Assembly: GCA_026415035.1 (NCBI GenBank)
Contig: JAOAHX010000022.1
Span: 23,026 to 55,025, forward strand
Source of the DNA: Thermodesulfobacteriota bacterium
GTDB taxonomy: Bacteria > Desulfobacterota > BSN033 > UBA1163
Reading direction: 5' to 3'
Length of the DNA: 32,000 nucleotides
A program made the translations under genes and the position numbers. Shown here one piece after another: positions 11,668-32,000 of this stretch. The notes beneath the pieces are model-generated. The model was not told the origin of the DNA. It saw only the letters and a list, made by a program, of their open reading frames with translations, and ran no database searches. The first letter of the stretch is position 1. Every line of letters begins with the position of its first letter.

Positions 11668-11703
11668 GGAGAGCCTCCTGATTTCAGCCTGCCCTTCTCT
11701 TCC

Positions 11704-11733: not shown

Positions 11734-11746
11734 AAGGCCCCTCGCA

Positions 11747-13515: not shown

Positions 13516-13599
13516 GATTCGACCCCGACTTGCCCCCTCTCGACCCGAGATCGGAACGAAATCCTTTCCCAAGGCCAGAGGGGGCCGGAAGGGATTGGA

Positions 13600-14622: not shown

Positions 14623-14667
14623 CTTTGACCTCCTCTTCAAAGTTTCCCTTTCCCTAAGGGTGAAAAT

Positions 14668-14696
14668 TTTTTAACAAATCCTTTCCGTTTTGACAA
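14668..14696 (-). promoter_or_regulatory. possible promoter of dctPQM: TTGTCA-N17-TAAAAA with a TGT extension
   Basis: The minus strand reads TTGTCAAAACGGAAAGGATTTGTTAAAAAAT in the 91-nt gap upstream of dctP. Confidence 0.4.
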
Positions 14697-14713
14697 GGAA
14701 GGGTTGGACGCTC

Positions 14714-15133: not shown

Positions 15134-15137
15134 GAGG

Positions 15138-16526: not shown

Positions 16527-16733
16527 GGCTCTTCCTTTCCGGTTCCCTCGGGTCTTTCGCTCCTTTGAATCCCCTTTCGAGGAAGGCCCTCCGAGGTCCT
16601 CTCCGTCCGACCCTGGAGGGTAAGGGGTTCTGGGTAAACTTGAATATACACTGTTTTTGAAATGGAGGGAAGCCCCTCCTTTGTTGTAGAATGTAGGCAG
16701 GAAGCGTATTCGGATCCCTATCGAAGGTGAAGG

Positions 16734-18098
16734 ATGGATCGGCCTGCCTTCCTTGCGTTGCTCCTTCTGCTCATCCTCTCCTCGATCCACGGGACGACCG
16801 AGGCCCTGGGCGGAGGCCATCCCTGTTGTCCTGAAGATCGGGAGCTTTCTTATCTCCTCCATCCCAAACCCACCCAGAGCTATTCCTACCTGGTCCGGTA
16901 CGAAACCTTTTTCTCCACGGTGTTGGGGAAGGAGAAGGGGTTTTTCGTCATCCTTCCCATCGATTTTTACCAAAATCCCAAAATGCGGTATCCCCACCTT
17001 TATCTTCTTCACGGGTACAATTTCCATCGGAGGGGATGGCGTTGGAAAGCCAAATCTCCCGAAGAGGTGCGGAAGCATCTCTGCGAAGCCAAGGAGGAGG
17101 AATACCATTGGCTTCTCCATGAAGACATCGCGGTGATTGCCTATGCGATGATGGATTCAAAAAATCGGACCTATCGGGAGTTGCAACGTTCCCTGGAGGA
17201 TCGGTTTTATGAGCTTTCAATCCACGGGGGTCTCCTGAAGGAGGACTACCATCCGAGGGAGATTGCCCAATCCCTTGTCCTCCATAATCTCCACCCAGGG
17301 GGAAATTTGGATGACCCCTTCCAGCCTATCCTTAAGATGGTCCTCGTTCTGCCGGACGGAGACAACGGATTCTATACCGATGAAAACGAAGGAAGGAGGC
17401 TCTTTCCCGAAACAGAAAATCGAGGGCCCTGCGATGGGTTCCACCCGAGGGAGTCTTGGAACTATTCGCTCTTCCCTTTCCTTTGGATGCAACCGGGCGC
17501 CTTAGGGCAATACGAGACCTATTTCCTCGAACTGGTCAGACATTTGGAGACCCGATCCCCTTACAGAGAGAGGCTTCTGCCCGTCAGAGGGATCGGAGGG
17601 ATGTCGATGGGCGGGTTCGGGGCCATGAAATTGGGGCTGAAGTATCCCGACCTCTTCCATTCCATCAGCAGTCAGAGCGGGCTGCTGGACCTCGAGCTCC
17701 TCAGGAATCGATGGACCCTGAAGATGGTCCTCCCGGAATTTTTGGAGGTCTTCGGACGCCTCGACCCGAAGAGCCTCCCTCCGGGTTCTCGTCTCGACCT
17801 TTTTTACATCGCTTCCAACAATCCCCTCCGCCTGCTGGCAAAAAGGGGGATCAAGCGATTGCCCCCCTGGATCTATTTCGACTATGGAGAACAAGAGGGA
17901 TATCCTTGGATCGTCGAAGGGAACCGGAATTTCGAGAAGGCCTTGGCCGCGGCGAGCCGCCGGATCTCGGCCCAGGCTTTCAACGGAACTTCCCAGCATA
18001 ATTACCAGTTCTGGCGAAGCCGGGCAGGAAATATGCTGCGGCACCACTCGGAGGTTTTCCGGGGGCTCCTTTTAGGTCATTCCGTGTCTTCGCCCTGA
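16734..18098 (+). CDS. secreted alpha/beta-hydrolase, putative esterase family
   Basis: Signal peptide MDRPAFLALLLLLILSSIHG. YLLHGY and GIGGMSMGGFGAMKLGLKYPDLF (a GxSxG nucleophile elbow) match esterase-D/PF00756-like proteins. Confidence 0.7.
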   Translation: MDRPAFLALLLLLILSSIHGTTEALGGGHPCCPEDRELSYLLHPKPTQSYSYLVRYETFFSTVLGKEKGFFVILPIDFYQNPKMRYPHLYLLHGYNFHRRGWRWKAKSPEEVRKHLCEAKEEEYHWLLHEDIAVIAYAMMDSKNRTYRELQRSLEDRFYELSIHGGLLKEDYHPREIAQSLVLHNLHPGGNLDDPFQPILKMVLVLPDGDNGFYTDENEGRRLFPETENRGPCDGFHPRESWNYSLFPFLWMQPGALGQYETYFLELVRHLETRSPYRERLLPVRGIGGMSMGGFGAMKLGLKYPDLFHSISSQSGLLDLELLRNRWTLKMVLPEFLEVFGRLDPKSLPPGSRLDLFYIASNNPLRLLAKRGIKRLPPWIYFDYGEQEGYPWIVEGNRNFEKALAAASRRISAQAFNGTSQHNYQFWRSRAGNMLRHHSEVFRGLLLGHSVSSP

Positions 18099-18101
18099 GG
18101 A

Positions 18102-19910
18102 CTACTGCTCGAGGAGCAGGCGACCGAGCCTCTCCCGCTCGATCCCCATCCATTCCCACGCCTCGACGTATACCGCTTTCCCTTTCTCGTCGTAAGGGTC
18201 GACAAGGATCTTCCTCAGAAAGAAAGGAGAATTCCTGACATGACATTCTTTGCAGCCTTTGGCCCCGAGAGCGAGGGACCCGGGCCGGACGTTGTGGTTG
18301 AGGGAGAGGTCCGTCGGTCGGGCCCTATCGTGGGGAATCTTCTCCACCGCCCCTTTTTTATCCAATCGATAGAGAAATCCTCCCTTGAGGAGGACGGGCA
18401 GCTCGGCGATGGGATTTCCGAAGCGGTCTCTTCCTTTGAGGGCGAGGAGGAAGGATCGAATCTCCTCGAGGCTGTTCACCTCTGGAACGCCGTCCCCGTT
18501 GTCATCTCGGAGGGGCGGTTTCTTCATCTCCCGGATCTTCCAGAGCGGGATGGGTCTGACGACATTCCTCTTTTCGTCCAGATCTCCCCAGTAGATCGGA
18601 AGGGCGGGCTTCACCGGTACGATCTTTCCCTTGAAATTCCTGAGACCAGGGTACCAGAGAGGGGACCTCGCTCCGGCGGAGGGGATGAAGTCCGAGGTCT
18701 CATAGATCCGTGTCTCTCCGGTGGTGTGATCATAGACGAGCTCCGCGGAAAGGGACCGGTAAGGAAGGTGGCAGGTCTGGCAGGCGATCCTCCGCAGGTG
18801 GCGGGGCGAGAAGGGGTGGCGGGGGCGGGGCGCTTTGCGATCCCTTCTTTTGTAGTGGCAGTCCTCGCAGGAAGGCATCGTCTGGTCCAGGTCGTCTCGG
18901 ACCGTCAACGAGAGGGAATCTCCCTTGGCGATCTGGTGTTCCTTGTTCCCCGGATGGCAGGAGACGCACTCCATCCCTCTGGCCCGGTGGACATCCGTCT
19001 CGGGGCTCCACTCGTATCCCCTCTTCTTTTCTCCATAGGGGGCATGGCAGGACCAGCAATTCTCGGAAGGAGGCCTTCGGACGATCTGAACATGGAGGTT
19101 TTCGAAATCGGCCACCTCCTTGTTGGTGTAATCGATCCGCGGGGAGCCGGTCTGGGCCTCAGGGGTTTGTGGAGAAGGAGGTTTGAAGGTGGCCCAGCCC
19201 GCTCCTGCCGCAGGTCCGTAGCGAAACAGCCCCGCCCTCAGAAAGGCCGCGCGTTCTTTCCATCGATATCCCGGGAGGTGGCAGATGAGACAGTCCGCTT
19301 CGTTCACCCCGCTTCGGTCCCAAGGGGCGCCGTAATTCTCATGGCCTCCGCTGAAAGGGGTATAATCCCCGTCGAGGTGAGGAGGCTCGCCAAAAAATTC
19401 ATAGCCAAACTTCCGTTTCGAGGGATCGTAGTAAGGGTTTCCCCTTCGATCGAACTCGGCCCATCCTCCTCCTGGATGGCAGGGGCCGCAATTCCGGACG
19501 TAGAAGAAGGTGGATCGATCCATTTCGGAAAAGGTCCGATTCGTTTTTCGGGAGAGGAGGCTCGCATCGGGTGAGAGGGGAGAGTATTTTCCATAGAGCC
19601 CGGAGGAGAGACTCCCGGGCGTTTGGGGATCGAAGGTGTCGCTCACCGCGATCTTCCCCGACCCATCCAGGCGGCCCTGTTGGAAGTGGTACCCCTTTGT
19701 GATCTGGTCGTAGTCGTGGCAGGCACCGCAGGTCTTTTTGGGGCTGTAGGGAGACTGGCTCCCCATCGTGAGGGGAGTTCCCTCGTGGTCCCTCAATACG
19801 ATCTTCGGATGAGGGGAAGTCCCGGAGGAGATCGAAGAAGGAGTCGGGGAGAAGAGACCAAGGCCGGCCAGCGCGATCAAAAAGAACGACCCAAAGAGGA
19901 ATCGTTTCAG
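18102..19910 (-). CDS. octaheme c-type cytochrome (8x CxxCH), exported
   Basis: The heme motifs are CGACH, CGPCH, CLICH, CWSCH, CVSCH, CEDCH, CQTCH and CKECH. The 5' end is extended to the CTG at 19910 (see finding); the first canonical start is TTG at 19880. Confidence 0.85.
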   Translation of the reverse strand: MKRFLFGSFFLIALAGLGLFSPTPSSISSGTSPHPKIVLRDHEGTPLTMGSQSPYSPKKTCGACHDYDQITKGYHFQQGRLDGSGKIAVSDTFDPQTPGSLSSGLYGKYSPLSPDASLLSRKTNRTFSEMDRSTFFYVRNCGPCHPGGGWAEFDRRGNPYYDPSKRKFGYEFFGEPPHLDGDYTPFSGGHENYGAPWDRSGVNEADCLICHLPGYRWKERAAFLRAGLFRYGPAAGAGWATFKPPSPQTPEAQTGSPRIDYTNKEVADFENLHVQIVRRPPSENCWSCHAPYGEKKRGYEWSPETDVHRARGMECVSCHPGNKEHQIAKGDSLSLTVRDDLDQTMPSCEDCHYKRRDRKAPRPRHPFSPRHLRRIACQTCHLPYRSLSAELVYDHTTGETRIYETSDFIPSAGARSPLWYPGLRNFKGKIVPVKPALPIYWGDLDEKRNVVRPIPLWKIREMKKPPLRDDNGDGVPEVNSLEEIRSFLLALKGRDRFGNPIAELPVLLKGGFLYRLDKKGAVEKIPHDRARPTDLSLNHNVRPGSLALGAKGCKECHVRNSPFFLRKILVDPYDEKGKAVYVEAWEWMGIERERLGRLLLEQ

Positions 19911-20608: not shown

Positions 20609-21178
20609 ATGAAGCGGATCTATCTGGACCGGAGGGTCTGGCAGGAGTCGAAAGAGAGCTGGGTGAGCTTCGAGAGCGATCCGAACCTTCGAATGACGAA
20701 GTGGAGTATTTATGGGCGCTGTGTCCCCTGCATCACCCATCTCTACGAGCAGTTACAGGCCGGCCGGGACGAAATCGAGTTGAAGGAGGCCTTCCACTGC
20801 TGGAAGGTGGTGGCGGTTCTGAACGATCAAGAGGAGTGCCTGGAGGTCCTCAAGGAGTACGAGGAACGGTTCCTCGGGGATCGCCCGGTCCGAGGGAAGT
20901 TCGGCTCGAGCCAACCGGAAAAGCCCACCAAGGTCTTGATGTTCCATACCGAGGACGAGGGGGAGAAAGACCGGCTTCTGAAGGAGCTGAAGGAGTGCGT
21001 GAAGAGGGTGAATCCGGAGGGAAAGGTCTTCTGTCAGAAGGCCTGTGCCAACCTCTACTATGAACTCCTGGGGGATTGGAGAGAGTGGAAAGAGGTGACC
21101 CGTATCAGGAATGCGGCGGTCCGTTCCGCATTGATCGAGCGGATCAAGAAATTGCTTTACTGGGAGAAAGACGGGTAG
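20609..21178 (+). CDS. hypothetical protein (189 aa), no recognisable family
   Basis: ATG follows an AGGGGA SD. The composition is charged and helical, with scattered Cys and His residues. Its 3' end overlaps the convergent ribK-like gene by 22 nt. Confidence 0.55.
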   Translation: MKRIYLDRRVWQESKESWVSFESDPNLRMTKWSIYGRCVPCITHLYEQLQAGRDEIELKEAFHCWKVVAVLNDQEECLEVLKEYEERFLGDRPVRGKFGSSQPEKPTKVLMFHTEDEGEKDRLLKELKECVKRVNPEGKVFCQKACANLYYELLGDWREWKEVTRIRNAAVRSALIERIKKLLYWEKDG

Positions 21179-21540
21179 AGGAGGACCTCGATCTCGATCT
21201 CATCGCCTTCTTTTAAAGAGAGGGAGGTCTGGATCTTTTGGGAGGCGATGAGCTCCACCTTGTTTTCGGGATAATGTTCCACGAGGGGAAGAACGATGGC
21301 CCCCCTCAGGCGCTGATGGATGAGGACCGGGTAACAACGAGCCCTGCAGAAGGAGGGGTCTTCCGGGACGATTTCGATCCCCTCCCTCTTTTTGAGATCT
21401 TGGTAGGCCCGAAGCGAATCGAGGTCGTGGATCTGGAGGTTGAGGGTGCCGGGATAGGGATCGATGGAAAGTTTCTCGATGAACTGTCTTCGCACCCAGG
21501 GGATCTGGGTAAATTGATTCGCCTCTTTCAACCCCCCCAC
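21157..21540 (-). CDS. archaeal-type (CTP-dependent, DUF120) riboflavin kinase-like protein
   Basis: IDPYPGTLNLQI matches the PYxGTLN motif. HYPENKVELIASQKIQTSLSLKEGDEIEIEV resembles the C-terminus of M. jannaschii RibK as I recall it. The start is a GTG at 21540, 6 nt after GAGGA. Confidence 0.65.
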   Translation of the reverse strand: MGGLKEANQFTQIPWVRRQFIEKLSIDPYPGTLNLQIHDLDSLRAYQDLKKREGIEIVPEDPSFCRARCYPVLIHQRLRGAIVLPLVEHYPENKVELIASQKIQTSLSLKEGDEIEIEVLLYPSFSQ

Positions 21541-21556
21541 AATTTTTCCTCGAATC

Positions 21557-22156
21557 TTAATGGTTCAACCCTCTCTTTTTCAGATGATTTTTGACCGTTT
21601 GGCTCCCCCAGCGGGCGAAGAGGTTGTGTTCGATATGGAAGAGGTCGAGGACCTTTCCGACGGTGTGGTTGATGAGGTCATCCATCGTCTTGGGGTGGAA
21701 ATAGAAGGCCGGGGCAGGCGGAAGGATGATCACCCCGAGGTCGGCCAGGTTCATCATCAGGTTGAGATGGCCTTTGTGGAGCGGGGTTTCCCGGACGACG
21801 AGGACCAGCTTTCGTCGTTCCTTGATCGTGACATCGGCGGCCCGGATCAGGAGGTTGAGGTTGAAAGAGTTGGCGATGGCCGAAAGGCTCTTAATCGAAC
21901 AGGGCATGACGACCATCCCGTCGGTCTGGAAGGAACCGCTGGCGATATCGGCCCCCACATCCTTGATGTCGTAGACCACCTTGGCCAGGGCCCGGACCTC
22001 CTCGACCCTCCAATCGGTCTCCATCCGGATGGTCTTCTCGCCCGCCTCCGTGATCACCAGGTGCGTCTCCACCTTGGATCTCGAGAGGACCTCGAGCAAT
22101 CGGATTCCGTAGATGGCCCCGGTGGCTCCCGAGATTCCCACGATCAACCGTTTCAT
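21557..22156 (-). CDS. ubiX: UbiX-type flavin prenyltransferase (prFMN synthase)
   Basis: MKRLIVGISGATGAIYGIRLLEVL is the start, and MVVMPCSIKSLSAIANS, VLVVRETPLH and ILPPAPAFY follow. An ATGA overlap joins it to the upstream UbiD gene stop. Confidence 0.92.
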   Translation of the reverse strand: MKRLIVGISGATGAIYGIRLLEVLSRSKVETHLVITEAGEKTIRMETDWRVEEVRALAKVVYDIKDVGADIASGSFQTDGMVVMPCSIKSLSAIANSFNLNLLIRAADVTIKERRKLVLVVRETPLHKGHLNLMMNLADLGVIILPPAPAFYFHPKTMDDLINHTVGKVLDLFHIEHNLFARWGSQTVKNHLKKRGLNH

Positions 22157-23541
22157 CTCATTCCTTTCGCCTTGAGGTCGTGGAGAAGAGGGGAGAGCCT
22201 TCGTTTTACCTCCTCCGGGACATCGACCTTTTTGAACCCCTCGGGCCTCGGCCGCGTGGCATCCAACCCCATCTTGGCGGTGAAGAACCCCTCTCCCGCT
22301 GAAGGATCGATAGGTTGTCCCCTCATCTCGGTCAATACCATGAGGTCTCGGTCGGCCTGGAAACGGGTGGCCAGGGCCCATTCGATCTCCTGATTGCTGT
22401 GAAGGTCGATGTCCGGATTGACCGCCACTGCCTTTTTGATATGGGGAAAGGAGAGGGCCAAGGCCAGGGCCCTTCGGACCTCCGCCCGGCTATCGGTCTC
22501 TATGCTTATGACCGCATGGGAGCCGAAGGTTCCGGGGACGAAGCGTATCTCCCGGATGGCGGGGACCTCCCTTTTCATCTTTGGCACAAAGTCGAGGCCA
22601 TGGACGAGGTAGAGGAGGTTGTCCACCTCGAGGCTCCAGGGCACGATGGCGTGATAGAAGGCCCCCTTTTTCAGGGTAAGGGCCGTCACCTCGATGGAGG
22701 GGCTCCTGGAGAAGCCCATGTAATAGCCGCTCGATTCTCCGAGGACCCCGTCCTCTTCCTTACCCATGGGATCGATCACGCCTTCGATCACGATCTCGGC
22801 GCGGGCGGGGATTTCGAGATCGACGGTCTCCGCCTTGACCGTCTCGATCGCCCTTCCGATGAGACCTCCCACCAGGGCGAGCTTGTCCATTCCCGGAGGG
22901 GCTTTGAGTATGGGCGCGATGAAGATCAGGGGATCCAGGCCGATGGCCGTGGCGATCTCCATCTTTCTCCGTCTCTTTTTGTACTTCTCGTAGATTTCCG
23001 AAAGGGGAGGGTTGAGCAGGGAGATCCCGAGGCGGTCTTTGCCTCTGAGTTCCATTCGGTGAAGCCCCCGTCCCATCGCGCCGGTTTCGGGATCCCGGGC
23101 GGAAGAGACCCCCGAGGTGATGTAAGGACCGGAGTCGTCCTCATAGTGGGTGAGGATGGGCAACAGCCTCCTCAGGTCGAGGCCCTTTCCCCTTTTGATG
23201 ACCTCCTTGGGGGTCTCCTCGCGGACGAGGACAGGTGGGATTTCTTGTCCGAGGCGCTTAAGAAATTCCTCAAAGAGCGTTTCGGGCTCCGCCCGGAGGG
23301 CCAGGGCCAGGCGTCTTTTCGTTCCGAGAAGGTTACCGACCACGGGCACCCGATGGCCTTTGACCCGCTCAAAAAGGATCGCTGGTGAGTCCCGCTTCCC
23401 CAGCTCCGACAGGACCGCCGAGATTTCATATCGAGGGTCCAGCGGAAGCTTGATGGAAAGGAGGTCGCCTTGGGATCTCAAGGCGTCCAGAAAGTCACCC
23501 AGCCCTGAGATTGGCCTCAAGGAGGCTCCGGAAGAGATCAT
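22153..23541 (-). CDS. UbiD-family decarboxylase/carboxylase paralog 1 (462 aa, most divergent)
   Basis: UbiD-like throughout: PAILFERVKGHRVPVVGNL, DDSGPYITSG, IATAIGLDPL. The active-site loop reads DGVLGESSGYY where other UbiD proteins have E-x-P-F-G-E/D-x-x-G-Y. The start at 23541 forms an ATGA overlap with the 85-aa gene. Confidence 0.85.
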   Translation of the reverse strand: MISSGASLRPISGLGDFLDALRSQGDLLSIKLPLDPRYEISAVLSELGKRDSPAILFERVKGHRVPVVGNLLGTKRRLALALRAEPETLFEEFLKRLGQEIPPVLVREETPKEVIKRGKGLDLRRLLPILTHYEDDSGPYITSGVSSARDPETGAMGRGLHRMELRGKDRLGISLLNPPLSEIYEKYKKRRRKMEIATAIGLDPLIFIAPILKAPPGMDKLALVGGLIGRAIETVKAETVDLEIPARAEIVIEGVIDPMGKEEDGVLGESSGYYMGFSRSPSIEVTALTLKKGAFYHAIVPWSLEVDNLLYLVHGLDFVPKMKREVPAIREIRFVPGTFGSHAVISIETDSRAEVRRALALALSFPHIKKAVAVNPDIDLHSNQEIEWALATRFQADRDLMVLTEMRGQPIDPSAGEGFFTAKMGLDATRPRPEGFKKVDVPEEVKRRLSPLLHDLKAKGMR

Positions 23542-23795
23542 TGAAATTTGTTGACCTCTTTGAGGATCTTGATCGACCAGGGCCTCTCCTGGAGTTGACC
23601 CCTTCCCAGGCGGACCCACAGAAGGTCTGGGTATTTGGTCTCCGATTTGGAGACCATGGCAATGGCGTAGGTACTTCTGTATTTATAGCGGCGATCCTCA
23701 GGGGTGAGGTCTCGGACGATCATCTCCATCTCCTGGTCTTCTGGGAAGGTGTCGGGGTCTGTCAGAATGAAGGTGTCGTACTCTTTTCTGGCCAT
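23538..23795 (-). CDS. 85-aa acidic, Cys-free protein; candidate small subunit of the UbiD-type complex
   Basis: ATG at 23795 lies 5 nt after GAGGAGGGAG and 11 nt after the UbiD-2 stop. Its stop overlaps the UbiD-1 start. Sequence: MARKEYDTFILTDPDTFPEDQEMEMIVRDLTPEDRRYKYRSTYAIAMVSKSETKYPDLLWVRLGRGQLQERPWSIKILKEVNKFQ. Confidence 0.6.
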   Translation of the reverse strand: MARKEYDTFILTDPDTFPEDQEMEMIVRDLTPEDRRYKYRSTYAIAMVSKSETKYPDLLWVRLGRGQLQERPWSIKILKEVNKFQ

Positions 23796-23806: not shown

Positions 23807-25258
23807 TCAATCCTTGAATCCATAGGCTTTCCAGTTGGTCAAAACCTTTTCCTGAATCGCCTTGGGGTAGATATCGGGGTTGCTGAAATTGACCTTGATC
23901 GGAACCATCCCCTTCGGCCAATCGAGGGGGAAGGTGCAGTCGAAGAGGACCTGAGCGCCCCGGCTCCACTTTCGATCGGCGGGGTCGGCGAAGGGATAGA
24001 GCGGCGTTCCGGGGGCCTGTTCATATTTTCGAATGCCCCGGATGGGATGGCATTTGGTGCAGAGATCGTGAATCACCTCGTCCTTGTTGTAGATATCGGT
24101 TTTATCATCGACCACGACGACCATGTGGAACCAAGGGCTCAATTTCGATCCGAAGACGAGATTGGCAATCTGGGTGGCGATCCCGCTGTAGGCGACCTTG
24201 GTTCCGACGACGACAAGATGGTGGGTCGATTCGGGCCACATGAAGACCCCGGTGATGGGAATGCCCTGGCTTTCGAGGAGCTTTCTCATTTCAAGGCCTA
24301 ATGAAAAAGATCGCAGCAATTGCCCCTCGTCGGTGGGGACGCCCATATTGGAGACCGTCAAGATGGGGTTGTTGCGGAAGGTGATGGCCTTGATCCGGTA
24401 AACGGTCCTCGGTTCTCTCGGGGAGGTCCGATAGCCCGTATACTCTCCGAAGGGCGCCTCCTCGATCAAGACGTTGGGAATGACGTCTCCCTCGATGATG
24501 ATCTCGGCATGGGCCGGGACGAGGAGGTCGTTCGTTTCGCACGGGACCAGCTCCACGGGAGCGCCCATCAACATGCCCGTGAACTCGTCTTCGGGGATGG
24601 GGGAAGGGGCGCAGGCGGCCACCCCAGCCAGGGGATCGCAGCCGATGACCGTAGCAAAGGGCATGGGTTTGTTTTTGGGGACGTATTTTCCATAAAACAT
24701 CTTTCCCATGTCGGAAAAGGGAAGGACCGGGCCGACCATGGTCTTTTCGTCGAAGACCGACTGTCGGTACATCCCCCAGTTGACGAATCCGTTGTCAGGA
24801 TCTTTGGAGACGACGAAATGCCATGTGGCCAGATACCTCCCTCCATCTCCTCCGTGAACCATCGGGGCCGGCAACTTGAAGAGGTCAGCATCCTTGTCCA
24901 GCCAGATGTTCTCTTTACAGGGAGCCTTTTTCTTGTCGACGACGACCGGTTTGATCGGCTCTCCGGTCGTTCGCTTCACATACTCATCGGAGATTTCAGG
25001 CACGGAGGCATCTGGTTGCATGCCCATGGCGATGGCGAGCCGTTTGTAGGTGGCCAAAGGGGCCCCGAAGGCTTCGAATCCCGGATAGTCCCGAATCTTT
25101 TTAAAGTAGGGGGCAGGTGATTTCCGTTCGCAGACCCTGCGGACGATCGCGCCCATCTCAAGGTCCCAGTCCACCTCCTGGTGGATGGTGACGAGGTCGT
25201 CATGGGTCTCCAGGGCCTTGATGAATTCCCGATTATCTTTGTAAAACGTATAAGCCAT
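23807..25258 (-). CDS. UbiD-family paralog 2 (483 aa), phenylphosphate-carboxylase alpha/beta-like
   Basis: Start MAYTFYKDNREFIKALE follows an AAGGAGGA SD. GGRYLATWHFVVSKDPDNGFVNWGMYR, ATVIGCDPL and the EAPFGEYTGY active-site loop are present. Confidence 0.85.
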   Translation of the reverse strand: MAYTFYKDNREFIKALETHDDLVTIHQEVDWDLEMGAIVRRVCERKSPAPYFKKIRDYPGFEAFGAPLATYKRLAIAMGMQPDASVPEISDEYVKRTTGEPIKPVVVDKKKAPCKENIWLDKDADLFKLPAPMVHGGDGGRYLATWHFVVSKDPDNGFVNWGMYRQSVFDEKTMVGPVLPFSDMGKMFYGKYVPKNKPMPFATVIGCDPLAGVAACAPSPIPEDEFTGMLMGAPVELVPCETNDLLVPAHAEIIIEGDVIPNVLIEEAPFGEYTGYRTSPREPRTVYRIKAITFRNNPILTVSNMGVPTDEGQLLRSFSLGLEMRKLLESQGIPITGVFMWPESTHHLVVVGTKVAYSGIATQIANLVFGSKLSPWFHMVVVVDDKTDIYNKDEVIHDLCTKCHPIRGIRKYEQAPGTPLYPFADPADRKWSRGAQVLFDCTFPLDWPKGMVPIKVNFSNPDIYPKAIQEKVLTNWKAYGFKD

Positions 25259-25281: not shown

Positions 25282-25824
25282 TTAATCCCCTTTCGAGAGT
25301 TTTTCGATCACGTCGGTCCACTTCCCCTGGGCCCTGAGGATGAATTCGGCCACCTCCCTGACCACCCCCCTTCCACCCCCTGCCAGGGTCACATAATCCG
25401 CCACCTCTTTGGCCTCGACCGAGCCGTCTGAGGGGGCGACCGAAAAACCGACCCGCTTCATGACGCCCAGGTCGATCATCTCGTCCCCGACGTAGCAGAT
25501 CTCCTCGTCCTTGAGGCCAGAGTCTTTTTCAAATTCATCGAGCTTTCCGATCTTGGCCGAGGTCCCCCATAATTTCTCCAGCGGGACCCCGTAGATCTTC
25601 CCCACCTGTTCATCCGTCCTCGTGATTTTACTGGTCAGGAAGGCCACGCCGATCCCCCCTTCCTGGAGGGCCAGGCATCCCAGACGGTCGCGAAGGGAGA
25701 AGCATTCCGACTTCTTCCCATCATCCGTATAATATAGGGTGTTATCCGTCAGGATCCCGTGAATGTCGAGGATCACAAACTTTACCTTTTTGGCTTTCTC
25801 AACGGCCTGCTCCCTGTCTTTCAT
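25282..25824 (-). CDS. KdsC-like HAD-superfamily protein 1 (180 aa), phenylphosphate-carboxylase 18-kDa-subunit-like
   Basis: Collinear with KdsC as I recall it: VILDIHGILTD, FSLRDRLG, VAFLTSK, YVGDEMIDLGVMKRVGFSVAPSD, GGGRGVVREVAEFILRAQGKW. Motif I is D-I-H-G, with the His codon CAC at 25761-25759. An ATGA overlap joins it to the ligase stop. Confidence 0.8.
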   Translation of the reverse strand: MKDREQAVEKAKKVKFVILDIHGILTDNTLYYTDDGKKSECFSLRDRLGCLALQEGGIGVAFLTSKITRTDEQVGKIYGVPLEKLWGTSAKIGKLDEFEKDSGLKDEEICYVGDEMIDLGVMKRVGFSVAPSDGSVEAKEVADYVTLAGGGRGVVREVAEFILRAQGKWTDVIEKLSKGD

Positions 25825-27494
25825 CGGAAACCTCCCCTTTCGAAATCTCCTTTCAGTTTTCTCTCGATATCCTCTTTGAGGGCCTTCTTGTCGATCTTTT
25901 CCGCTTTGGTCAAGGGCATCCGATCGACGAACTCGATCCTCTCCGGAAGCTGGAGGACCGAGGCCTTCTTCTCTTTGAGGTGGGCGATGATCTTTTCAAA
26001 GCTTAAATCCGCCCCCGGCCTGGGTTGAATGTATGCGCAGACCCGTTCTCCGAGGTCCGGGTCGGGCATGGGCACGACCGCAACCAGGGCGACATCGGGA
26101 TGGGTGCTGATCAGGGATTCGATCTCCGTGGCGCTGATGCTTTCGCCTCCTCGATTGATCATCTCTTTGACCCGGCCGGTGAGCCTGACCACGCCCCTTT
26201 CATCGATGATGGCCAGATCCCCGGTCCGGAAAAACCCATCTTCGGTGAAAACCTTCGCATTCTCCTCGGGCGCTTTGTAGTAACCGGTGAAGACTCCCGG
26301 CCCTTTGATGACCAATTCTCCCGGCGTGTTGGGAGGGAGCTCTCTGCCGTCCGGGCCCACCACCTTGTAAAGGTCGTAAGGACAGGTGGGTTTCCCCACG
26401 GTATGGAGGATCGTCTCGAGAGGATCCCCGGTTCGGGTCAGGGTGGTCTGGCCCTCTGTGCCTCCATACCCATTGTAGAAGTGACAGCGGAGATCTTCCC
26501 TCACCCCCTTCACCAGCTCAGGAAGGCTCAGGCTCCCGCCACAATGCATTGCCCTCAGGGAACGGAGATCATAGTTTTTCCGGCCTTCGTAGTCGAGTAG
26601 CCTTTTTGCAAGCGTCGGCGTCCAGACGATCGTGGTCACCCTCTCTCTCTGGATCGTCTCGCAGACCTCCTTCATCTCCGTCGTATCGAGAAAGACGTTC
26701 TTGCCAAAGGCAAAAAGGGTGCTTCCGAGCCCTTTGGTGAAGGTGAGGTCATGGCCGATCGGTCCGGCGAGGAGGCAGGTGTCTCTGTGACTCACTTCCC
26801 AGGCATAGGCGGCAAATTCCATGGTGCAAATGAGGCTGTTGTGGGTTCGGGGGACCAGTTTGGGAAGACCCGTCGTCCCACCCGTGGGACCCATGTGGGC
26901 GACCTCCATGGGATCCGGTCTTCTCAAGGCAAGCCGGGTGAGGTTGGCTTCGTTGAGCTCCACCCCTGCCATCAATTTCTCCATGCTTTTATAGAGTCCC
27001 AGACCCTCGCTCCGGACAAGGATGACGTTTCTCAAAAAAGGGGTCTCCTTGACCACATCCTCGACGATGGGAAGGTAATCGGTCTTCTTATATTTTTCCG
27101 GCACGATCCACAAGGTGGCCTCCGAGAGTTTGGCCAGGTACTGGATCTCGTGCTGTCGATAGCGGTCGATGAGCAACACCGGGATGGCACCGACCTTTTG
27201 GGTTGCAAAGTAGGCGAAGACGAACTCCACCCAGTTTGGGAGTTGAATCAGGACGCGGTCTCTCGGGGCGACCCCAAGGTCCAAAAGGCTCACCGCGAGG
27301 CGGTCGGTTTTCTCCCTCGCCTCTTTGAAGGTGAGCCGGTGCTGTCCGTCCACAAAGGCCTCTTTGTCCGGAAAGACATCCGCCGCCTTGTCCAGGAGAT
27401 CCCCCAAGGTCATACCGGACCACCAGCGAAGGCGAATATATTTCTCAGCATCTTCTTGGGGATAAGGGGTGAAGCCTTCGAGATAGCCTGTCAT
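25821..27494 (-). CDS. aryl-acid adenylating enzyme / CoA ligase of the EntE-DhbE (2,3-dihydroxybenzoate-AMP ligase) type
   Basis: The N-terminus GFTPYPQEDAEKYIRLRWWSGMTLGDLL resembles DhbE/EntE. The ANL motifs are TGGTTGLPKLVPRTH, GYGGTEG, FRTGDL and GRVKEMINRGGESI. Confidence 0.85.
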   Translation of the reverse strand: MTGYLEGFTPYPQEDAEKYIRLRWWSGMTLGDLLDKAADVFPDKEAFVDGQHRLTFKEAREKTDRLAVSLLDLGVAPRDRVLIQLPNWVEFVFAYFATQKVGAIPVLLIDRYRQHEIQYLAKLSEATLWIVPEKYKKTDYLPIVEDVVKETPFLRNVILVRSEGLGLYKSMEKLMAGVELNEANLTRLALRRPDPMEVAHMGPTGGTTGLPKLVPRTHNSLICTMEFAAYAWEVSHRDTCLLAGPIGHDLTFTKGLGSTLFAFGKNVFLDTTEMKEVCETIQRERVTTIVWTPTLAKRLLDYEGRKNYDLRSLRAMHCGGSLSLPELVKGVREDLRCHFYNGYGGTEGQTTLTRTGDPLETILHTVGKPTCPYDLYKVVGPDGRELPPNTPGELVIKGPGVFTGYYKAPEENAKVFTEDGFFRTGDLAIIDERGVVRLTGRVKEMINRGGESISATEIESLISTHPDVALVAVVPMPDPDLGERVCAYIQPRPGADLSFEKIIAHLKEKKASVLQLPERIEFVDRMPLTKAEKIDKKALKEDIERKLKGDFERGGFR

Positions 27495-27524
27495 CTCATC
27501 CTCCTCTCCAAGGCTTGGGGAAGG

Positions 27525-28082
27525 TCATTTGTATCCCATGCGGGTCACCTTTTCGACCCACTCTTCCCATTTTCCCATCGAACGGAGGATGAATTCACAG
27601 GTCTCCCGGATTGGCCCTCGACCTCCGGGTGCGGTGGTGATGTAGTCGGCGACCTCCTTCACTTCATCGATGGCATCGGCTGTGGCCACAGCGAATCCGA
27701 CCCTTTTCAGGAGGGGGAGGTCCGTGATTTCGCAACCGATGTAACCCACCTCTTGGTCGCTGAGGTTCAGCTCACGTTTTAACTCCTCCAGTTTTGCCAC
27801 TTTATCTTTCACCCGGAAGTAGAATTTATCGAGTTTTAATTCCCTGGCGCGGAAGAGCCCCTCCTCATCGATGGAGGTCGTATCCAAAAACGCGATCTGG
27901 ATTCCATTGGCCGTCAGGGAGAGATCGCCAAACCCGTCCATGTGCCAGAAGGCATACTTCCGTCGGCCTTCGATATCGCAGAAGAAGGTGTTCGGGGTGA
28001 GGACGCCGTGGACATCGTGGGCGAACAATTTGATCCTCTTGGCCTTCTCTCTCGCCTTTGCGAGGTCTTTTTCGAATCCCAT
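27525..28082 (-). CDS. KdsC-like HAD-superfamily protein 2 (185 aa), degenerate paralog
   Basis: Motif I is LFAHDVHGVLT (D-V-H-G), with the His codon CAC at 28010-28008. Motif IV reads YIGCEITDL where KdsC has GDDxxD. GGRGPIRETCEFILRSMGKW is also present. Confidence 0.75.
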   Translation of the reverse strand: MGFEKDLAKAREKAKRIKLFAHDVHGVLTPNTFFCDIEGRRKYAFWHMDGFGDLSLTANGIQIAFLDTTSIDEEGLFRARELKLDKFYFRVKDKVAKLEELKRELNLSDQEVGYIGCEITDLPLLKRVGFAVATADAIDEVKEVADYITTAPGGRGPIRETCEFILRSMGKWEEWVEKVTRMGYK

Positions 28083-28119: not shown

Positions 28120-28611
28120 TCAGCCCAGCTTTTTCCCCAGTTGGTAGTAGCGATTTTCGAACCAGATCAAGGGTTTCAACTTGGGTCGGATCTTGTGGGC
28201 GACGACCTTCCCGACGTAGAGGATATAGTCGCCCTCCTTCACCGAATTCACCAGTTTACATTCGAGATTGGCGAAACAATCGGTGATCATGCTTCCTTTG
28301 ATCGTAGAGGCAGGCTCGGTGTTGATCTTAAATGTCTTCAATTTGTCGATGGATTCTCCGTGGATCGCCCCTAACTTCTCGGCCAGGTCGACCTGATGGG
28401 TGGAGGCGAGGTTCACGACGAATTCCTTGGCCTTGGGGATGAGGCGATGGGTGGTGCTCTCCTTGGAGATGCTGATGGCGATCAGGGGAGGGGAATCCGA
28501 GACAAACATCCCCGAAGCCGTCATGAGATTATGTTTCCCCCCTGCTTCGACGCTCACAAAGGTGACGATGCAGGGAAGTTCTCCAAAAATTACATCTCTA
28601 TAATGCCACAT
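28120..28611 (-). CDS. flavin reductase-like FMN-binding split-barrel protein (163 aa)
   Basis: The SD is AAAGGAGGAAG. NLMTASGMFVSDSPPLIAISI, EFVVNL, ANLECKLV and GDYILYVGKVV follow the PF01613-type pattern. Confidence 0.7.
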   Translation of the reverse strand: MWHYRDVIFGELPCIVTFVSVEAGGKHNLMTASGMFVSDSPPLIAISISKESTTHRLIPKAKEFVVNLASTHQVDLAEKLGAIHGESIDKLKTFKINTEPASTIKGSMITDCFANLECKLVNSVKEGDYILYVGKVVAHKIRPKLKPLIWFENRYYQLGKKLG

Positions 28612-28647: not shown

Positions 28648-30066
28648 TCAATCCTCAAACCCGTACTCCTTCCATCGGGACTTCACCTTGGCCAGCATCG
28701 CTTCCGAAAGCTTGATTTCCGTCGGCTTGACCGTCCACTCAAAGGGGATGGTGGCGTCGAGGATGATCCGGGAGGTGATAAATTTATTGTCCTCCGGCCC
28801 GAGGGAAGGATCGAGGGGGGTCGATCGTCCGCGGTGGATGATCTGGGTGCCCCGCTGAGGGTTATAACGCGTCCCGAGGGCCCACCATACCCGGGGGAGG
28901 TCGTCGGCCTCGATGTCGTGATCGACGATGATCACCATTTTCACCCCGTACATTCCTGTGTTGCTCGCGATCACCGCAGCTGCCACCTGATCGGCATGAC
29001 CTGGATACATCTGCTCCACGGAGACGACCACGATAAATCGGCCGGAGGCCTCGGGCAGGGTGTAGACCGATTTGATTCCAGGGATCTCCATCTTGGCCAG
29101 TTCGGTCCAGAGGCTGGCGTTCCTCGTGAAGGCATAGAGGATATGCTGGTCTCCGACGGGCCTGCCCACGCTCGTTTCCCAGAGGATGGGGTTGTTTCGA
29201 TGATAGATCCGTTTTACGTCGAGAGCGGGCTTCGGGATGGGTTTGATCAATTCCTCCGTGTAATAACCGGTATATTCTCCGAAGGGGCCTTCGTTTCGGA
29301 GGTTTTTCGGATCGATCTCCCCTTCGAGAACGATCTCCGCGGCCGCAGGGATGGGGAGCCCCGTCAGGGGGGCCTTGACGATCTCGACGGGTTCCCCTCG
29401 TAAAGAGCTCACCACGTCGTAACCACTCTTCGCCTTCACCGTGGTGGCCGCACCGGCCAGGACGTGGAGGGGGTCTCCCCCGATGATGGCACAAGCGGGC
29501 ATCTTTTTGCCCGCCTTGGCATACTTTTTCAAGATGCGGTCCCCTTTTTTCCCCTTCAGGATCTGGACGCCCACCGTCTTATCATCGAGGATCCCCATCC
29601 GGTAGGTTCCGAGATTGATATCGCCGGACTCGGGGTCCTGCAACACCATGAAGACCGCGGTCCCGAAATACCGACCCCCATCGAGCTCATAGAATCTGGG
29701 GGAGGGGAAAGCAAAGGTATCCACCTTGTCTCCCTCGAGGACGTTTTCGAAGATGGGCCCATCTTTCTGCTCCTTGGCCTTAATCACTTCCTTGACGGCC
29801 ACATTGACCCATTCCTTGGTGAGCTGGACCATGGAAAGGGAGGGGTCCTTTCCCAGGATGATGGCGAGCCTTTTGGTCGTTCCGAAAGCGCCGGTCAGAA
29901 CGGGGCTGGTATATCCCTTGACGTTTTCAAAAAGCAGGGCCGGTCCGCTTTTCTCTTCCACGAGCTTGGCGATATGGGAGATCTCGAGGTCCCAATCCAC
30001 CTCGGCCTTGATCCGTTTTAATTCCCCGACCGCTTCACATTTAGCGATAAATTCCCTGAGGTCCAT
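28648..30066 (-). CDS. UbiD-family paralog 3 (472 aa), phenylphosphate-carboxylase alpha/beta-like; first gene of the operon
   Basis: ATG at 30066 lies 6 nt after GGAAGGAGG; the ORF-track GTG at 30072 abuts the SD. GPALLFENVKGY, DGGRYFGT, NLGTYRM, AIIGGDPL and the EGPFGEYTGYY active-site loop are present. Confidence 0.88.
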   Translation of the reverse strand: MDLREFIAKCEAVGELKRIKAEVDWDLEISHIAKLVEEKSGPALLFENVKGYTSPVLTGAFGTTKRLAIILGKDPSLSMVQLTKEWVNVAVKEVIKAKEQKDGPIFENVLEGDKVDTFAFPSPRFYELDGGRYFGTAVFMVLQDPESGDINLGTYRMGILDDKTVGVQILKGKKGDRILKKYAKAGKKMPACAIIGGDPLHVLAGAATTVKAKSGYDVVSSLRGEPVEIVKAPLTGLPIPAAAEIVLEGEIDPKNLRNEGPFGEYTGYYTEELIKPIPKPALDVKRIYHRNNPILWETSVGRPVGDQHILYAFTRNASLWTELAKMEIPGIKSVYTLPEASGRFIVVVSVEQMYPGHADQVAAAVIASNTGMYGVKMVIIVDHDIEADDLPRVWWALGTRYNPQRGTQIIHRGRSTPLDPSLGPEDNKFITSRIILDATIPFEWTVKPTEIKLSEAMLAKVKSRWKEYGFED

Positions 30067-30113
30067 CTTCACCCTCCTTCCCCAATCGTGGGTTAAAAGT
30101 CGATTTGGCCTTC

Positions 30114-30166: not shown

Positions 30167-30179
30167 AACTTCTGGTTAT
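30165..30179. promoter_or_regulatory. LysR-type T-N11-A dyad ATAAC-N5-GTTAT
   Basis: A perfect 5-bp inverted repeat at 30165-30179 overlaps the lysR start codon. It lies roughly 65 nt upstream of the TSS inferred for the divergent operon. Confidence 0.45.
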
Positions 30180-31119
30180 GGGCAAGCAGATCCCCCTTTA
30201 TGATTCGATCCAATCCCTTTTCGTTTTCCACGAGGTGGCGAAGCAGAAGAGTTTTTCGAAGGCCGCCGAGGAACTCTACGTCACCCAGCCCGCGGTGACC
30301 AAACACATCAAAGGGCTCGAGCAGAAGATCGGGATGCGCTTGATCGAAAGGGGAAAGGCCGGTTTCGGCCTGACGGAAGCGGGAAAGATCCTTTTCAAAT
30401 CGACCCAGAGGATCGCAGGACACCTTCAGGAGGTCGAGCATCTTCTTGGAAAACTCCGGAAGGAGCACCATGGTTTTCTGAGAATTGGAACGACGGAATC
30501 CTATTCCCGATGCCTGATGCCCGAACTTCTCTCGGAATTTCAGACGCGCTTTCCTTCGATCAAGATCGCCCTCGATGTCGGGAGCTCGGAGGAGATAGAG
30601 AAGAGCCTGCTGGCCTACCAGAACGATGTGGCCTTGATCGCCGTGACCAAAATTTCCCCCAAGTTCGAATGCGTTCCGTTTCTTAAGGAAGAACTCGTCC
30701 TGATCGTCTCCCCCCAGCATCCCCTGGCCAGCCACCGGAGCGTCTCCCTCAGGGCCGTGGAGGGATACCCTTTTATCATCCGGGCCAGAGGATCGACGAC
30801 GAGAAAAATCGTGACGGAGGCCTTCAAAGAGCTGGGAGTTCACCCCTCCCTTTTCATCGAAGCCGGCAGCTCAGAATTCATCAAACAGTGGGTCTCCGAA
30901 GGAAGAGGGATTTCGGTCATCGTCGATCGGATCGCTGAGGAGGAGGCGAAAAGGGGACAGGTGGTCCGGATCCCCCTGGAAGAAAGATTCCAGTTACAGG
31001 TCTCTTTGCTCTATCTGAAGGCGGAGAGAGGCAACCCGGCCATCCAACATTTCAGCCGCTTCATCGAGGAGAAGAGGGAGGGGGGAGGCAAGGTACGGAA
31101 TTTACAAATTAAAACTTGA
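30178..31119 (+). CDS. LysR-family transcriptional regulator
   Basis: The N-terminal wHTH reads FHEVAKQKSFSKAAEELYVTQPAVTKHIKGLEQKIGMRLIER. A LysR substrate-binding-type C-terminus follows. It is divergent from the UbiD operon. Confidence 0.9.
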   Translation: MGKQIPLYDSIQSLFVFHEVAKQKSFSKAAEELYVTQPAVTKHIKGLEQKIGMRLIERGKAGFGLTEAGKILFKSTQRIAGHLQEVEHLLGKLRKEHHGFLRIGTTESYSRCLMPELLSEFQTRFPSIKIALDVGSSEEIEKSLLAYQNDVALIAVTKISPKFECVPFLKEELVLIVSPQHPLASHRSVSLRAVEGYPFIIRARGSTTRKIVTEAFKELGVHPSLFIEAGSSEFIKQWVSEGRGISVIVDRIAEEEAKRGQVVRIPLEERFQLQVSLLYLKAERGNPAIQHFSRFIEEKREGGGKVRNLQIKT

Positions 31120-31253: not shown

Positions 31254-31338
31254 GGAGAGGTTCCCGAGCGGCCAAAGGGGACAGACTGTAAATCTGTTGG
31301 CAATGCCTTCGGAGGTTCGAATCCTCCCCTCTCCACCA
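31254..31338 (+). tRNA. tRNA-Tyr (anticodon GTA), class II long variable arm, CCA encoded
   Basis: GGAGAGG...CCTCTCC acceptor stem. The anticodon loop is CTGTAAA. The T-arm is GGAGGTTCGAATCCTCC and the 3' end is ACCA. Confidence 0.92.
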
Positions 31339-31339
31339 G

Positions 31340-31361
31340 TTCGATATTAATTCGATATTAA
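31340..31361 (+). repeat. perfect tandem duplication of an 11-mer (TTCGATATTAA x2) just 3' of tRNA-Tyr
   Basis: Unit 1 is 31340-31350 and unit 2 is 31351-31361, starting 1 nt after the CCA end. Confidence 0.9.
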
Positions 31362-31484
31362 AAGGTCTGAAGCTGGGCGGAAAAGGTTTTTGAGCGGTTT
31401 GCCCGCTGAAGTGTGGTTTCGTCGATATCCGTGGATCCGAGAAGTGACCGTTGTCCAACAAAACGACCCCGATTGAGAGGAAAA

Positions 31485-31560
31485 GCGGGAGTAGCTCAGT
31501 TGGTAGAGCATCAGCCTTCCAAGCTGAGGGTCGCGGGTTCGATCCCCGTTTCCCGCTCCA
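31485..31560 (+). tRNA. tRNA-Gly (anticodon TCC), CCA encoded
   Basis: GCGGGAG...TTCCCGC acceptor stem with one G-U pair. D-arm TAGCTCAGTTGGTAGAGCA. Anticodon loop CTTCCAA. T-arm GCGGGTTCGATCCCCGT. Confidence 0.92.
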
Positions 31561-31606
31561 AAGAATACAACCTTACTTGGTGATAGAGGTTCCATTCAAG
31601 AGGAAG

Positions 31607-31634
31607 CCTGTCTCGATTCGCTGACAGGTTTTTT
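31607..31634 (+). terminator. intrinsic-terminator-like hairpin between tRNA-Gly and tRNA-Thr
   Basis: CCTGTC (31607-31612), a 10-nt loop, then GACAGG (31623-31628), followed by TTTTTT at 31629-31634. Confidence 0.45.
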
Positions 31635-31656
31635 ATTTATTTTTCTCATCACCCAT

Positions 31657-31732
<76 letters not shown>

Positions 31733-31787
31733 ACGAGGCGAGGCCTTTCGATCATCTTCTTTGGAGGAACTCAAGGAGGGAGGAGCC

Positions 31788-32000
31788 ATGTCGAAGCCGA
31801 AGTTTGAGAGGACGAAGCCGCATGTGAATGTGGGGACGATTGGGCATGTGGATCATGGGAAGACGACGTTGACGTCGGCGATTACGAAGGTGTTGTCGGC
31901 TCGGGGGTTGGCGCAGTATATGGCGTTTGATCAGATTGACAAGGCGCCGGAGGAGAAGGAGCGGGGTTTGACGATTGCGATTGCGCATGTGGAGTATGAG
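31788..32000 (+). CDS. tuf: elongation factor Tu, 5' part (runs off the window)
   Basis: ATG at 31788 follows an AAGGAGGGAGGAG SD. Sequence: [37 protein letters not shown]...[13 protein letters not shown], containing the G1 motif GHVDHGKT. It is absent from the ORF track because there is no stop in the window. Confidence 0.95.

Follow-up and report, generated by a model that had tools for sequence, protein, structure and literature searches.

We analysed a window of 32,000 nucleotides from a Thermodesulfobacteriota bacterium (assembly GCA_026415035.1, contig JAOAHX010000022.1, positions 23,026 to 55,025), which carries two paralogous genes for small proteins of the haloacid dehalogenase (HAD) superfamily, here called HAD-1 and HAD-2. 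Unless a contig or a locus is named, all coordinates are positions in the window. The genome measures 3.06 Mb and is 97% complete, and its nearest named relative is an uncultured Syntrophorhabdus metagenome-assembled genome (MAG), whose PpcA (locus L103) is 97% identical to that of the window. The two genes lie in an operon on the minus strand, from about 21.1 to about 30.1 kb, in which tightly packed genes follow the order ppcB, flavin reductase, HAD-2, aryl-acid ligase, HAD-1, ppcA, gamma, ubiD, ubiX and riboflavin kinase. Judged by its sequence, this is the phenylphosphate carboxylase (Ppc) operon of Syntrophorhabdus. HAD-1 (25282..25824, minus strand) encodes a delta-like HAD subunit of 180 amino acids, and HAD-2 (27525..28082, minus strand) encodes a degenerate delta-like paralog of 185 amino acids. 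The results indicated that both are Ppc 18-kDa-type (delta) subunits, that they belong to a clade in which the second Asp of motif I is replaced by His, and that they arose by duplication within this clade and have since lost different conserved residues.

The remaining genes of the operon are all on the minus strand. The PpcB-like UbiD-family beta subunit is encoded at 28648..30072 (TIGR02724, 690 bits, above the cut-off) and the PpcA-like UbiD-family alpha subunit at 23807..25258 (TIGR02723, 709 bits, above the cut-off); the PpcA start, the ATG at 25258, agrees with the consensus N-terminus of PpcA orthologues. Downstream lie the genes for the phenylphosphate carboxylase gamma subunit (Phenyl_P_gamma, PF09662; 85 amino acids, 23538..23795), a third UbiD-family paralog (22153..23541), for which an internal ATG start was estimated from the lengths of its orthologues, a UbiX flavin prenyltransferase (21557..22156) and a protein with a CTP-dependent riboflavin kinase domain (21157..21540). 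The flavin reductase-like protein (28120..28611), whose gene stands between ppcB and HAD-2 in some relatives only (loci L103, L104, L114, L078 and L084), presumably supplies reduced flavin mononucleotide (FMN) for the synthesis of prenylated FMN (prFMN). The aryl-acid AMP/CoA ligase (25821..27494), which is nearest to DhbE and to salicylate-AMP ligases, probably activates the 4-hydroxybenzoate product, and the stop of its gene overlaps the start of HAD-1 by 4 nucleotides. Only the closest relatives (the window, L103, L115, L082 and L084) have this gene inserted into the HAD pair, the two members of which are otherwise adjacent; in other genomes a ligase homologue occupies another place in the cluster or is absent. 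A gene for a LysR-family regulator (30178..31119, plus strand) diverges from the operon and is kept beside ppcB in orthologous clusters. Homologues of PpsB and PpsA are encoded next to each other on another contig (C22:18814-21723, minus strand), with 48% and 42% identity to the Aromatoleum proteins, respectively, while PpsC had only weak matches in the genome. The presence of the PpsA and PpsB homologues points to the expected pathway from phenol through phenylphosphate to 4-hydroxybenzoate.

An earlier note, made from the letters of the window, had reported that both HAD proteins carry D-x-H-G in place of the D-x-D-G of motif I, and its readings held up. Motif I is V-I-L-D-I-H-G-I-L-T-D in HAD-1 and F-A-H-D-V-H-G-V-L-T in HAD-2, as read directly from the window, and the His at the second position after the nucleophilic Asp (D+2) is encoded by CAC in both genes (His22 of HAD-1 at 25761-25759 and His25 of HAD-2 at 28010-28008, minus strand). 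Motif IV of HAD-2 is Y-I-G-C-E-I-T-D-L, with the loss of an Asp that the note had described. Alignments with solved structures of KdsC span the whole of each protein, as the note's claim of collinearity implied, and place the His opposite the second Asp of D-x-D-G. Among the matches listed, D-I-H-G was present in 120/120 homologues of HAD-1 (identity at least 78%) and H-D-[IV]-H-G in 120/120 homologues of HAD-2 (identity at least 71%), and 119/120 of the latter have G-[CAS]-E in motif IV. Because the His is conserved throughout these homologues and in the family alignment described below, it is attributable neither to chance nor to a sequencing error, which the note had also thought unlikely. 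Further changes came to light. Motif IV of HAD-1 is G-D-E-M-I-D, that is, G-D-E instead of G-D-D, and HAD-1 has lost an otherwise invariant Arg and Gly; in HAD-2 the Thr of motif II is replaced by Asp, a nearby Lys by Thr, and the residue before the nucleophile by His. The AlphaFold models of the two proteins, both confident (predicted local distance difference test, pLDDT, 93.9 for HAD-1 and 89.9 for HAD-2), superpose on KdsC of E. coli (2R8E) and Moraxella (4UM5, 4UM7) with template modelling (TM) scores of 0.83-0.89 and have the capless (C0) KdsC-type fold.

To place the pair in a wider context, we compared about 100 orthologous ppc clusters, in the collection of which the HAD proteins were never used as a query. 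The clusters came from two sources. In the phylum, 401 genomes were searched for the Pfam family of the gamma subunit, and 25 were positive; a PpcA alignment run against a named genome collection yielded 80 loci. In nearly all of these clusters ppcB and ppcA flank the HAD gene or genes, and this gene order recurs in 24 genomes of the phylum and at 80 loci of the named collection. The delta subunits fall into three types. The Asp type, a single gene with D-V-D-G and G-D-D-L-V-D, was found at 36 loci, 32 of them in Betaproteobacteria, including Aromatoleum tolulyticum, A. buckelii, A. anaerobium, Azoarcus and Sulfuritalea; the remaining loci belong, one each, to Rhodospirillales, an unclassified Proteobacteria MAG, Desulfuromonadales and Ardenticatenia. 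The single His type, also one gene, has D-V-H-G and G-D-E-[IV]-I-D and was found at 18 loci from Thermodesulfobacteriota MAGs and Bacillota (among them Thermincola, Syntrophomonadaceae and Moorellales), two short contigs among the 18 having odd taxonomic labels. The His pair, HAD-2 plus HAD-1, occupies 37 loci in Syntrophorhabdus and its relatives, other Thermodesulfobacteriota and Desulfosarcina cetonica. The earlier note had set beforehand, as a test of its observation, whether D-x-H-G is universal in Ppc delta subunits; it is not, since the deltas of Aromatoleum, Azoarcus and Sulfuritalea have D-V-D-G and G-D-D-L-V-D. HAD-2 was always accompanied by HAD-1, with two apparent exceptions, one at a contig edge (L125) and one in a frameshifted draft (L133). 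In the latter, Desulfosarcina cetonica JCM 12296, HAD-1 is split into two open reading frames and PpcA into four pieces, probably through frameshifts of the draft and not as real pseudogenes.

Two other arrangements were observed among the clusters. One genome of the phylum (G044) has two tandem gamma-subunit paralogs after ppcA (L074:9597-10139). At three loci (L094 and L096 in G090, and L097 in G026), a more distant PpcA-like protein (42-50% identity) is paired with a gamma subunit, and a HAD gene is not linked to the pair; they may represent UbiD-type carboxylases that need no delta subunit.

The wider HAD family was examined with a search that started from HAD-1. Among its best 150 representatives at 50% identity, residues other than Asp at D+2 were confined to the HAD-1 and HAD-2 clades, apart from one Asn. 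No Asp-type delta was among these 150 representatives, and 0 of the 10 that were scanned pass TIGR02726, the delta equivalog model; the Asp-type deltas were found through PpcA synteny. The unlinked KdsC homologues in the same genomes retain D-x-D-G, T-G-R and G-D-D.

Residues were then compared in an alignment of 135 non-redundant family members (81 of the His clade, 36 Asp-type deltas and 18 KdsC proteins), numbered after E. coli KdsC. In agreement with membership of the HAD superfamily, which is marked by a Rossmannoid fold with the nucleophilic Asp at the end of strand 1 and by the motif III Lys, the nucleophile (D32) is Asp in 100% of KdsC, Asp-type, single His-type, HAD-1 and HAD-2 sequences, and the motif III Lys is conserved at 96-100% in all groups. 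At D34, the general acid/base at D+2, His was found in 81/81 sequences of the His clade and Asp in 36/36 Asp-type deltas and 17/18 KdsC proteins, the remaining one having Asn. The second Asp of motif IV (D126), present in KdsC and the Asp type, is Glu in single His-type deltas, HAD-1 and HAD-2 (96%), and this replacement covaries strictly with the His at D34. K102 is Lys in all groups (96% in HAD-2), and D129 is Asp in all of them. Two features of the His clade are shared by HAD-2 and the single His-type deltas, in 100% of both. At position 56, in the hairpin after motif I, they have His, where KdsC and the Asp type have Val or Ile and HAD-1 has Leu. They also have a C-terminal G-[W/Y] tail, which no Asp-type delta possesses and which is mostly absent from HAD-1.

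The losses within the pair are reciprocal. HAD-2 lacks T76 of motif II, which is Thr or Ser in KdsC and the Asp type, Thr in the single His type and HAD-1, and Asp in HAD-2 (100%). It also lacks K78, which is Arg or Lys in KdsC and the Asp type, Lys in the single His type and HAD-1, and Thr (93%) or Ser (6%) in HAD-2. The first Asp of motif IV (D125) and L31 are retained in KdsC, the Asp type, the single His type and HAD-1; they are replaced in HAD-2 by Cys, Ser or Ala and by His (100%), respectively. HAD-1, in turn, lacks the hairpin His, most of the tail, R86 and G59; the last two are kept in KdsC, the Asp type, the single His type and HAD-2, and are Val or Met and Arg or Lys, respectively, in HAD-1. 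Apart from the His at D+2 and the Glu in motif IV, the catalytic core of HAD-1 is intact, with the nucleophilic Asp, the motif II Thr, the motif III Lys and the first Asp of motif IV. In the proteins of the window, these differences appear as V74 at the R86 position, R47 at the G59 position and K66 at position 78 of HAD-1, and as D67 in motif II and T69 at the K78 position of HAD-2, which retains R78 (the invariant Arg), H47 (hairpin) and a K-M-G-Y-K tail. The ratios of nonsynonymous to synonymous substitution rates (dN/dS) against the nearest relative were 0.05 for HAD-1, 0.027 for HAD-2, 0.012 for PpcA and 0.018 for PpcB; both HAD genes are under strong purifying selection. The earlier note had proposed that HAD-2 is a degenerate, possibly non-catalytic partner; its loss of Thr in motif II, of a Lys and of Asp in motif IV, the purifying selection on its gene and its constant pairing with HAD-1 support this view and make a non-catalytic role probable. 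One HAD-2-like protein (P0241, 184 amino acids, from a 438-kb NCBI contig) has D-V-P-G in motif I and G-S-Q-V-T-E in motif IV and retains the hairpin F-W-H-x-D-G-F-G and the K-M-G-Y-K tail. Because this lineage has degenerated further, the function of HAD-2 there would have no need of catalytic residues.

In the phylogenetic tree, which was obtained by a quick search with an outgroup that was not cleanly resolved, and in which support is given by the Shimodaira-Hasegawa-like approximate likelihood ratio test (SH-aLRT), all ppc-linked HAD proteins formed one clade (SH-aLRT 94) apart from the unlinked KdsC proteins. Within it, an Asp clade is separated from a His clade that comprises 96 rows (SH-aLRT 99, stem length 0.77). 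HAD-1 (SH-aLRT 99, stem 1.02) and HAD-2 (SH-aLRT 100, stem 1.22) were each monophyletic inside the His clade, in which the single-gene His forms were basal or unresolved. The two paralogs share about 42% identity, and each is about 42% identical to the Asp type. The grouping with the Asp-type deltas, together with the delta slot in the operon, bears out the earlier suggestion that HAD-1 and HAD-2 are Ppc delta subunits and not KDO-8-P (the 8-phosphate of 3-deoxy-D-manno-octulosonate) phosphatases. The delta type also tracked the PpcA tree, with 3 changes against a minimum of 2, and a branch of that tree has the Asp type on one of its sides. The division into Asp-type and His-type lineages therefore concerns the whole enzyme. 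The simplest history would be one Asp-to-His change, which takes a single base (GAY to CAY), and then a single duplication, after which both copies diverged fast.

Taken as a whole, we consider it reasonably likely that the duplicated delta pair of the His-type lineage makes up a hetero-oligomeric module in which HAD-1 is catalytic and HAD-2 is not. Capless HAD proteins of the KdsC type are tetramers, in which a neighbouring subunit completes the active site through a hairpin, an Arg and the C-terminal tail. Given this architecture, the reciprocal losses are the pattern that would be expected from subfunctionalisation into a hetero-oligomer. HAD-1 and HAD-2 would form a KdsC-like hetero-oligomer, in which HAD-1 would give the phosphoryl-transfer site (Asp20 as the nucleophile, with His22, Thr64, Lys91, Asp114, Glu115 and Asp118). 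HAD-2 would be incapable of ordinary Mg-dependent phosphoryl transfer and would provide the parts that reach into the neighbouring site, namely the invariant Arg, the hairpin and the C-terminal tail. Such a module would strip the phosphoryl group off the phenylphosphate made by PpsAB, which is encoded elsewhere in the genome, and the phenolate would be passed to the UbiD-type alpha/beta/gamma core for para-carboxylation, the co-encoded ligase then activating the 4-hydroxybenzoate.

Several points weigh against this reading. The hetero-oligomer and the roles given to residues in cis and in trans lean on the tetramers of KdsC and of KDN9P (2-keto-3-deoxynononate 9-phosphate) phosphatase. On TIGR02726, whose cut-off is 281.95 bits, HAD-1 and HAD-2 scored 132.8 and 124 bits, both far below it. 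Among the proteins scanned, only Asp-type deltas exceeded this cut-off (two from Aromatoleum, with 373 and 371 bits, and the one from Desulfuromonadales, with 292), and the Asp-type delta of Ardenticatenia fell slightly short at 269.5 bits. In Desulfatiglans anilini, two UbiD-type subunits alone are reported to convert phenylphosphoamidate, with no gamma or delta (PMC7500099), so a delta subunit is not always needed for related reactions. Finally, HAD-2 conserves five active-site residues at 96-100%, namely the nucleophilic Asp, the His at D+2, Lys in motif III, and Glu and the last Asp in motif IV, which is more than a pure scaffold would need, and the pocket of HAD-2 may therefore have a function of its own.

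The last point leads to the idea that both paralogs are active and specialised, for example because HAD-2 has a remodelled site (H-D-x-H, with Asp in motif II and Cys-Glu in motif IV) for another metal or another phosphorylated substrate, or because the two sites act in relay, which we regard as unlikely but worth weighing. It would account for the retained pocket residues, for the dN/dS of HAD-2 being lower than that of HAD-1, and for the gain of two invariant residues in the pocket region, the His at position -1 and the Asp in motif II. However, an Asp in place of the phosphate-binding Thr of motif II, combined with the lost Mg-ligand Asp, is hard to square with the established mechanism of HAD phosphoryl transfer; about 10% of homologues have Ser or Ala in place of the motif IV Cys, which is thus not an obligatory metal ligand, and the lineage of P0241 lacks the His and the whole of motif IV. 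It is improbable, in our estimation, that neither protein is a working phosphatase and that the His-type deltas are structural or assembly subunits, the P-O bond being cut elsewhere in the complex. The absence of the general acid/base at D+2 from the entire His clade and the reported activity of the D. anilini subunits fit this proposal, as do fold matches to the C-terminal, KdsC-fold domain of murine CMP-sialic acid synthetase, which has a non-catalytic role in tetramerisation. Yet His is able to act as a general acid/base, the nucleophilic Asp, motif II Thr, Lys and Mg-ligand Asp are kept at 100% in HAD-1 and the single His-type deltas across sequences that diverge by more than 40%, and the strict covariation of the His with the motif IV Glu gives the impression of an active site remodelled and not abandoned.

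A third possibility, that a phosphoryl-conserving transferase passes the group from a long-lived aspartyl-phosphate, or via the His, to ADP, AMP or inorganic phosphate, with HAD-2 as a gating or partner subunit, seems to us very improbable. If it were true, part of the ATP that strict anaerobes, for example syntrophs, spend on phenol activation would be recovered. Replacement of D+2 is known to stabilise the aspartyl-phosphate, as Thr does in P-type ATPases, and the His type occurs mostly in lineages labelled Thermodesulfobacteriota and Bacillota, while the Asp type is mainly betaproteobacterial. This distribution is confounded with phylogeny, because one clade amounts to one event, and the Asp type also occurs in a Desulfuromonadales MAG; moreover, no additional conserved acceptor or partner gene separates His-type from Asp-type clusters among those compared, and His is a competent general base for hydrolysis. 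We give hardly any weight to the notion that HAD-1 and HAD-2 are merely co-located housekeeping or cofactor phosphatases, acting on KDO-8-P or feeding prFMN synthesis, for example by making dimethylallyl monophosphate. In its favour, the 97% complete genome encodes a KDO-8-P synthase (KdsA, C1:68565-69335) and no KdsC-family gene besides HAD-1 and HAD-2, each of five other sampled genomes of the genus has two KdsC-family matches, which are the pair only, and the operon holds cofactor genes (UbiX, riboflavin kinase and flavin reductase). But both genes sit exactly in the delta slot and their products group with Asp-type deltas and not with unlinked KdsC, and the scores of HAD-1 (105.7 bits, barely below) and HAD-2 (91.7 bits) do not reach the cut-off of the KdsC subfamily model (TIGR01670, 106.95 bits). 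The two Arg positions of KdsC (78 and 86) are not jointly kept in either protein (K66 and V74 in HAD-1, T69 and R78 in HAD-2), the HAD genes have no kds or lpt neighbours, and kdsA is on another contig. KdsC is, in addition, dispensable in E. coli, which also counts against a housekeeping role.

Two other assignments of the operon were rejected. The aniline (phenylphosphoamidate) pathway was set aside as the principal reading, as the D. anilini system is UbiD-type only and is encoded in a different cluster, and the window genome has ppsAB homologues. A benzene or naphthalene carboxylase was also rejected, since PpcA and PpcB score above the cut-offs of the equivalog models for phenylphosphate carboxylase and their cluster shares its gene order with the ppc genes of Aromatoleum.

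If HAD-1 is the catalytic member of the pair, as we favour, the His at D+2 calls for an explanation. An aryl phosphate leaving group needs little acid catalysis, and His is itself a competent general acid/base. The replacement of Asp by His would be tolerable because phenolate is a good leaving group, and the His, probably paired with the covarying Glu, would stand in for the Asp as a proton-transfer or electrostatic residue. The His-Glu pair could act as the base when the aspartyl-phosphate is hydrolysed, or could provide a cation near the phosphate or the phenolate. The earlier note had proposed that the His would suit the release of an unprotonated phenolate for carboxylation. The phenylphosphate carboxylase that has been studied biochemically (PMC6114531, which summarises Schuhle and Fuchs 2004) is of the Asp type. 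That enzyme type runs the same reaction with Asp at this position, and the His is therefore no requirement of phenolate-releasing chemistry; the idea is not supported as stated, although the His may act in this way as a lineage-specific tuning.

These findings concern an enzyme that has been studied almost solely in Thauera and Aromatoleum. In lineages labelled strict anaerobes (Syntrophorhabdus, many Thermodesulfobacteriota, Thermincola and other Bacillota), its phosphatase-type subunit is systematically different, and where phenol is degraded under methanogenic or sulfidic conditions those organisms predominate. The literature searched contained no account of a His-type or a paired delta subunit, and in public annotations these proteins appear as KDO-8-P phosphatase, as HAD hydrolase or, in rare cases, as delta subunit. 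A model of the His-type subfamily would mend this mislabelling as KdsC or generic HAD hydrolase. For HAD enzymologists, the His clade offers a clean natural test of what D+2 does when HAD enzymes act on aryl phosphates, and the pair a tractable case of subfunctionalisation into an enzyme and a pseudoenzyme. In anaerobic aromatic degradation, where it is still debated how phenol activation by energy-limited anaerobes works energetically, the His would be relevant if it changes what becomes of the phosphoryl group.

Beyond the operon, the upstream neighbours at 9073-19880 include genes for a tripartite ATP-independent periplasmic (TRAP) transporter (DctP at 13600-14640 and a DctM fusion at 11747-13495), for a protein resembling ADP-forming acyl-CoA synthetases (15138-17120) and for a multihaem cytochrome (18102-19880), as well as DUF362 and DUF6599 genes that accompany one for a ferredoxin-like protein. 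At the other end of the window (31254-32000) there are genes for tRNA-Tyr, tRNA-Gly and tRNA-Thr, followed by the beginning of the EF-Tu gene; an open reading frame of 82 amino acids at 31347-31595 overlaps the tRNA-Gly gene on the opposite strand and is an artefact.

Among known systems, the closest is the delta subunit of Thauera aromatica and Aromatoleum (TIGR02726; Schuhle and Fuchs 2004, as summarised in PMC6114531). It forms the sister clade of the His-type proteins and shares with them the KdsC-like HAD-IIIA fold, the size and the slot flanked by ppcB and ppcA, upstream of gamma, ubiD and ubiX; HAD-1 retains its nucleophilic Asp, as well as the Thr of motif II, the Lys of motif III and the first Asp of motif IV. 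However, the Asp-type delta is a single gene with D-V-D-G and G-D-D-L-V-D, whereas the window has two copies with His at D+2 and Glu in motif IV, and the hairpin His and the C-terminal G-[WY] tail are features of the His clade and not of the Asp type. The canonical HAD set (D-x-D, Thr/Ser, Lys and D-D-x-x-D) is incomplete in HAD-1, and in HAD-2 the Thr is additionally replaced by Asp and the first motif IV Asp by Cys. With KdsC/YrbI (E. coli 2R8E, Moraxella 4UM5 and Aquifex 2P9J), HAD-1 and HAD-2 share the fold, about 30-37% identity and collinear motifs I-IV, but they lack D-x-D-G, G-D-D-x-x-D and a lipopolysaccharide gene context, their neighbours being ppc genes, ubiX and the ligase. Other HAD proteins have also replaced D+2, namely P-type ATPases (Thr), phosphonoacetaldehyde hydrolase (Ala) and 2-haloacid dehalogenases. 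They likewise keep the nucleophilic Asp and change the +2 residue, which alters the fate of the covalent intermediate, but they are distant families with caps or membrane domains. A HAD phosphatase family with His at +2 is not known to have been described, and the literature searched contained none. For HAD-2, the nearest parallel is the C-terminal KdsC-like domain of vertebrate CMP-sialic acid synthetase (PDB 3EWI), a catalytically inactive platform for tetramerisation. Unlike HAD-2, this domain is fused, eukaryotic, unrelated in function and without an active paralog as a partner, but it provides a precedent for a non-catalytic role of HAD-2.

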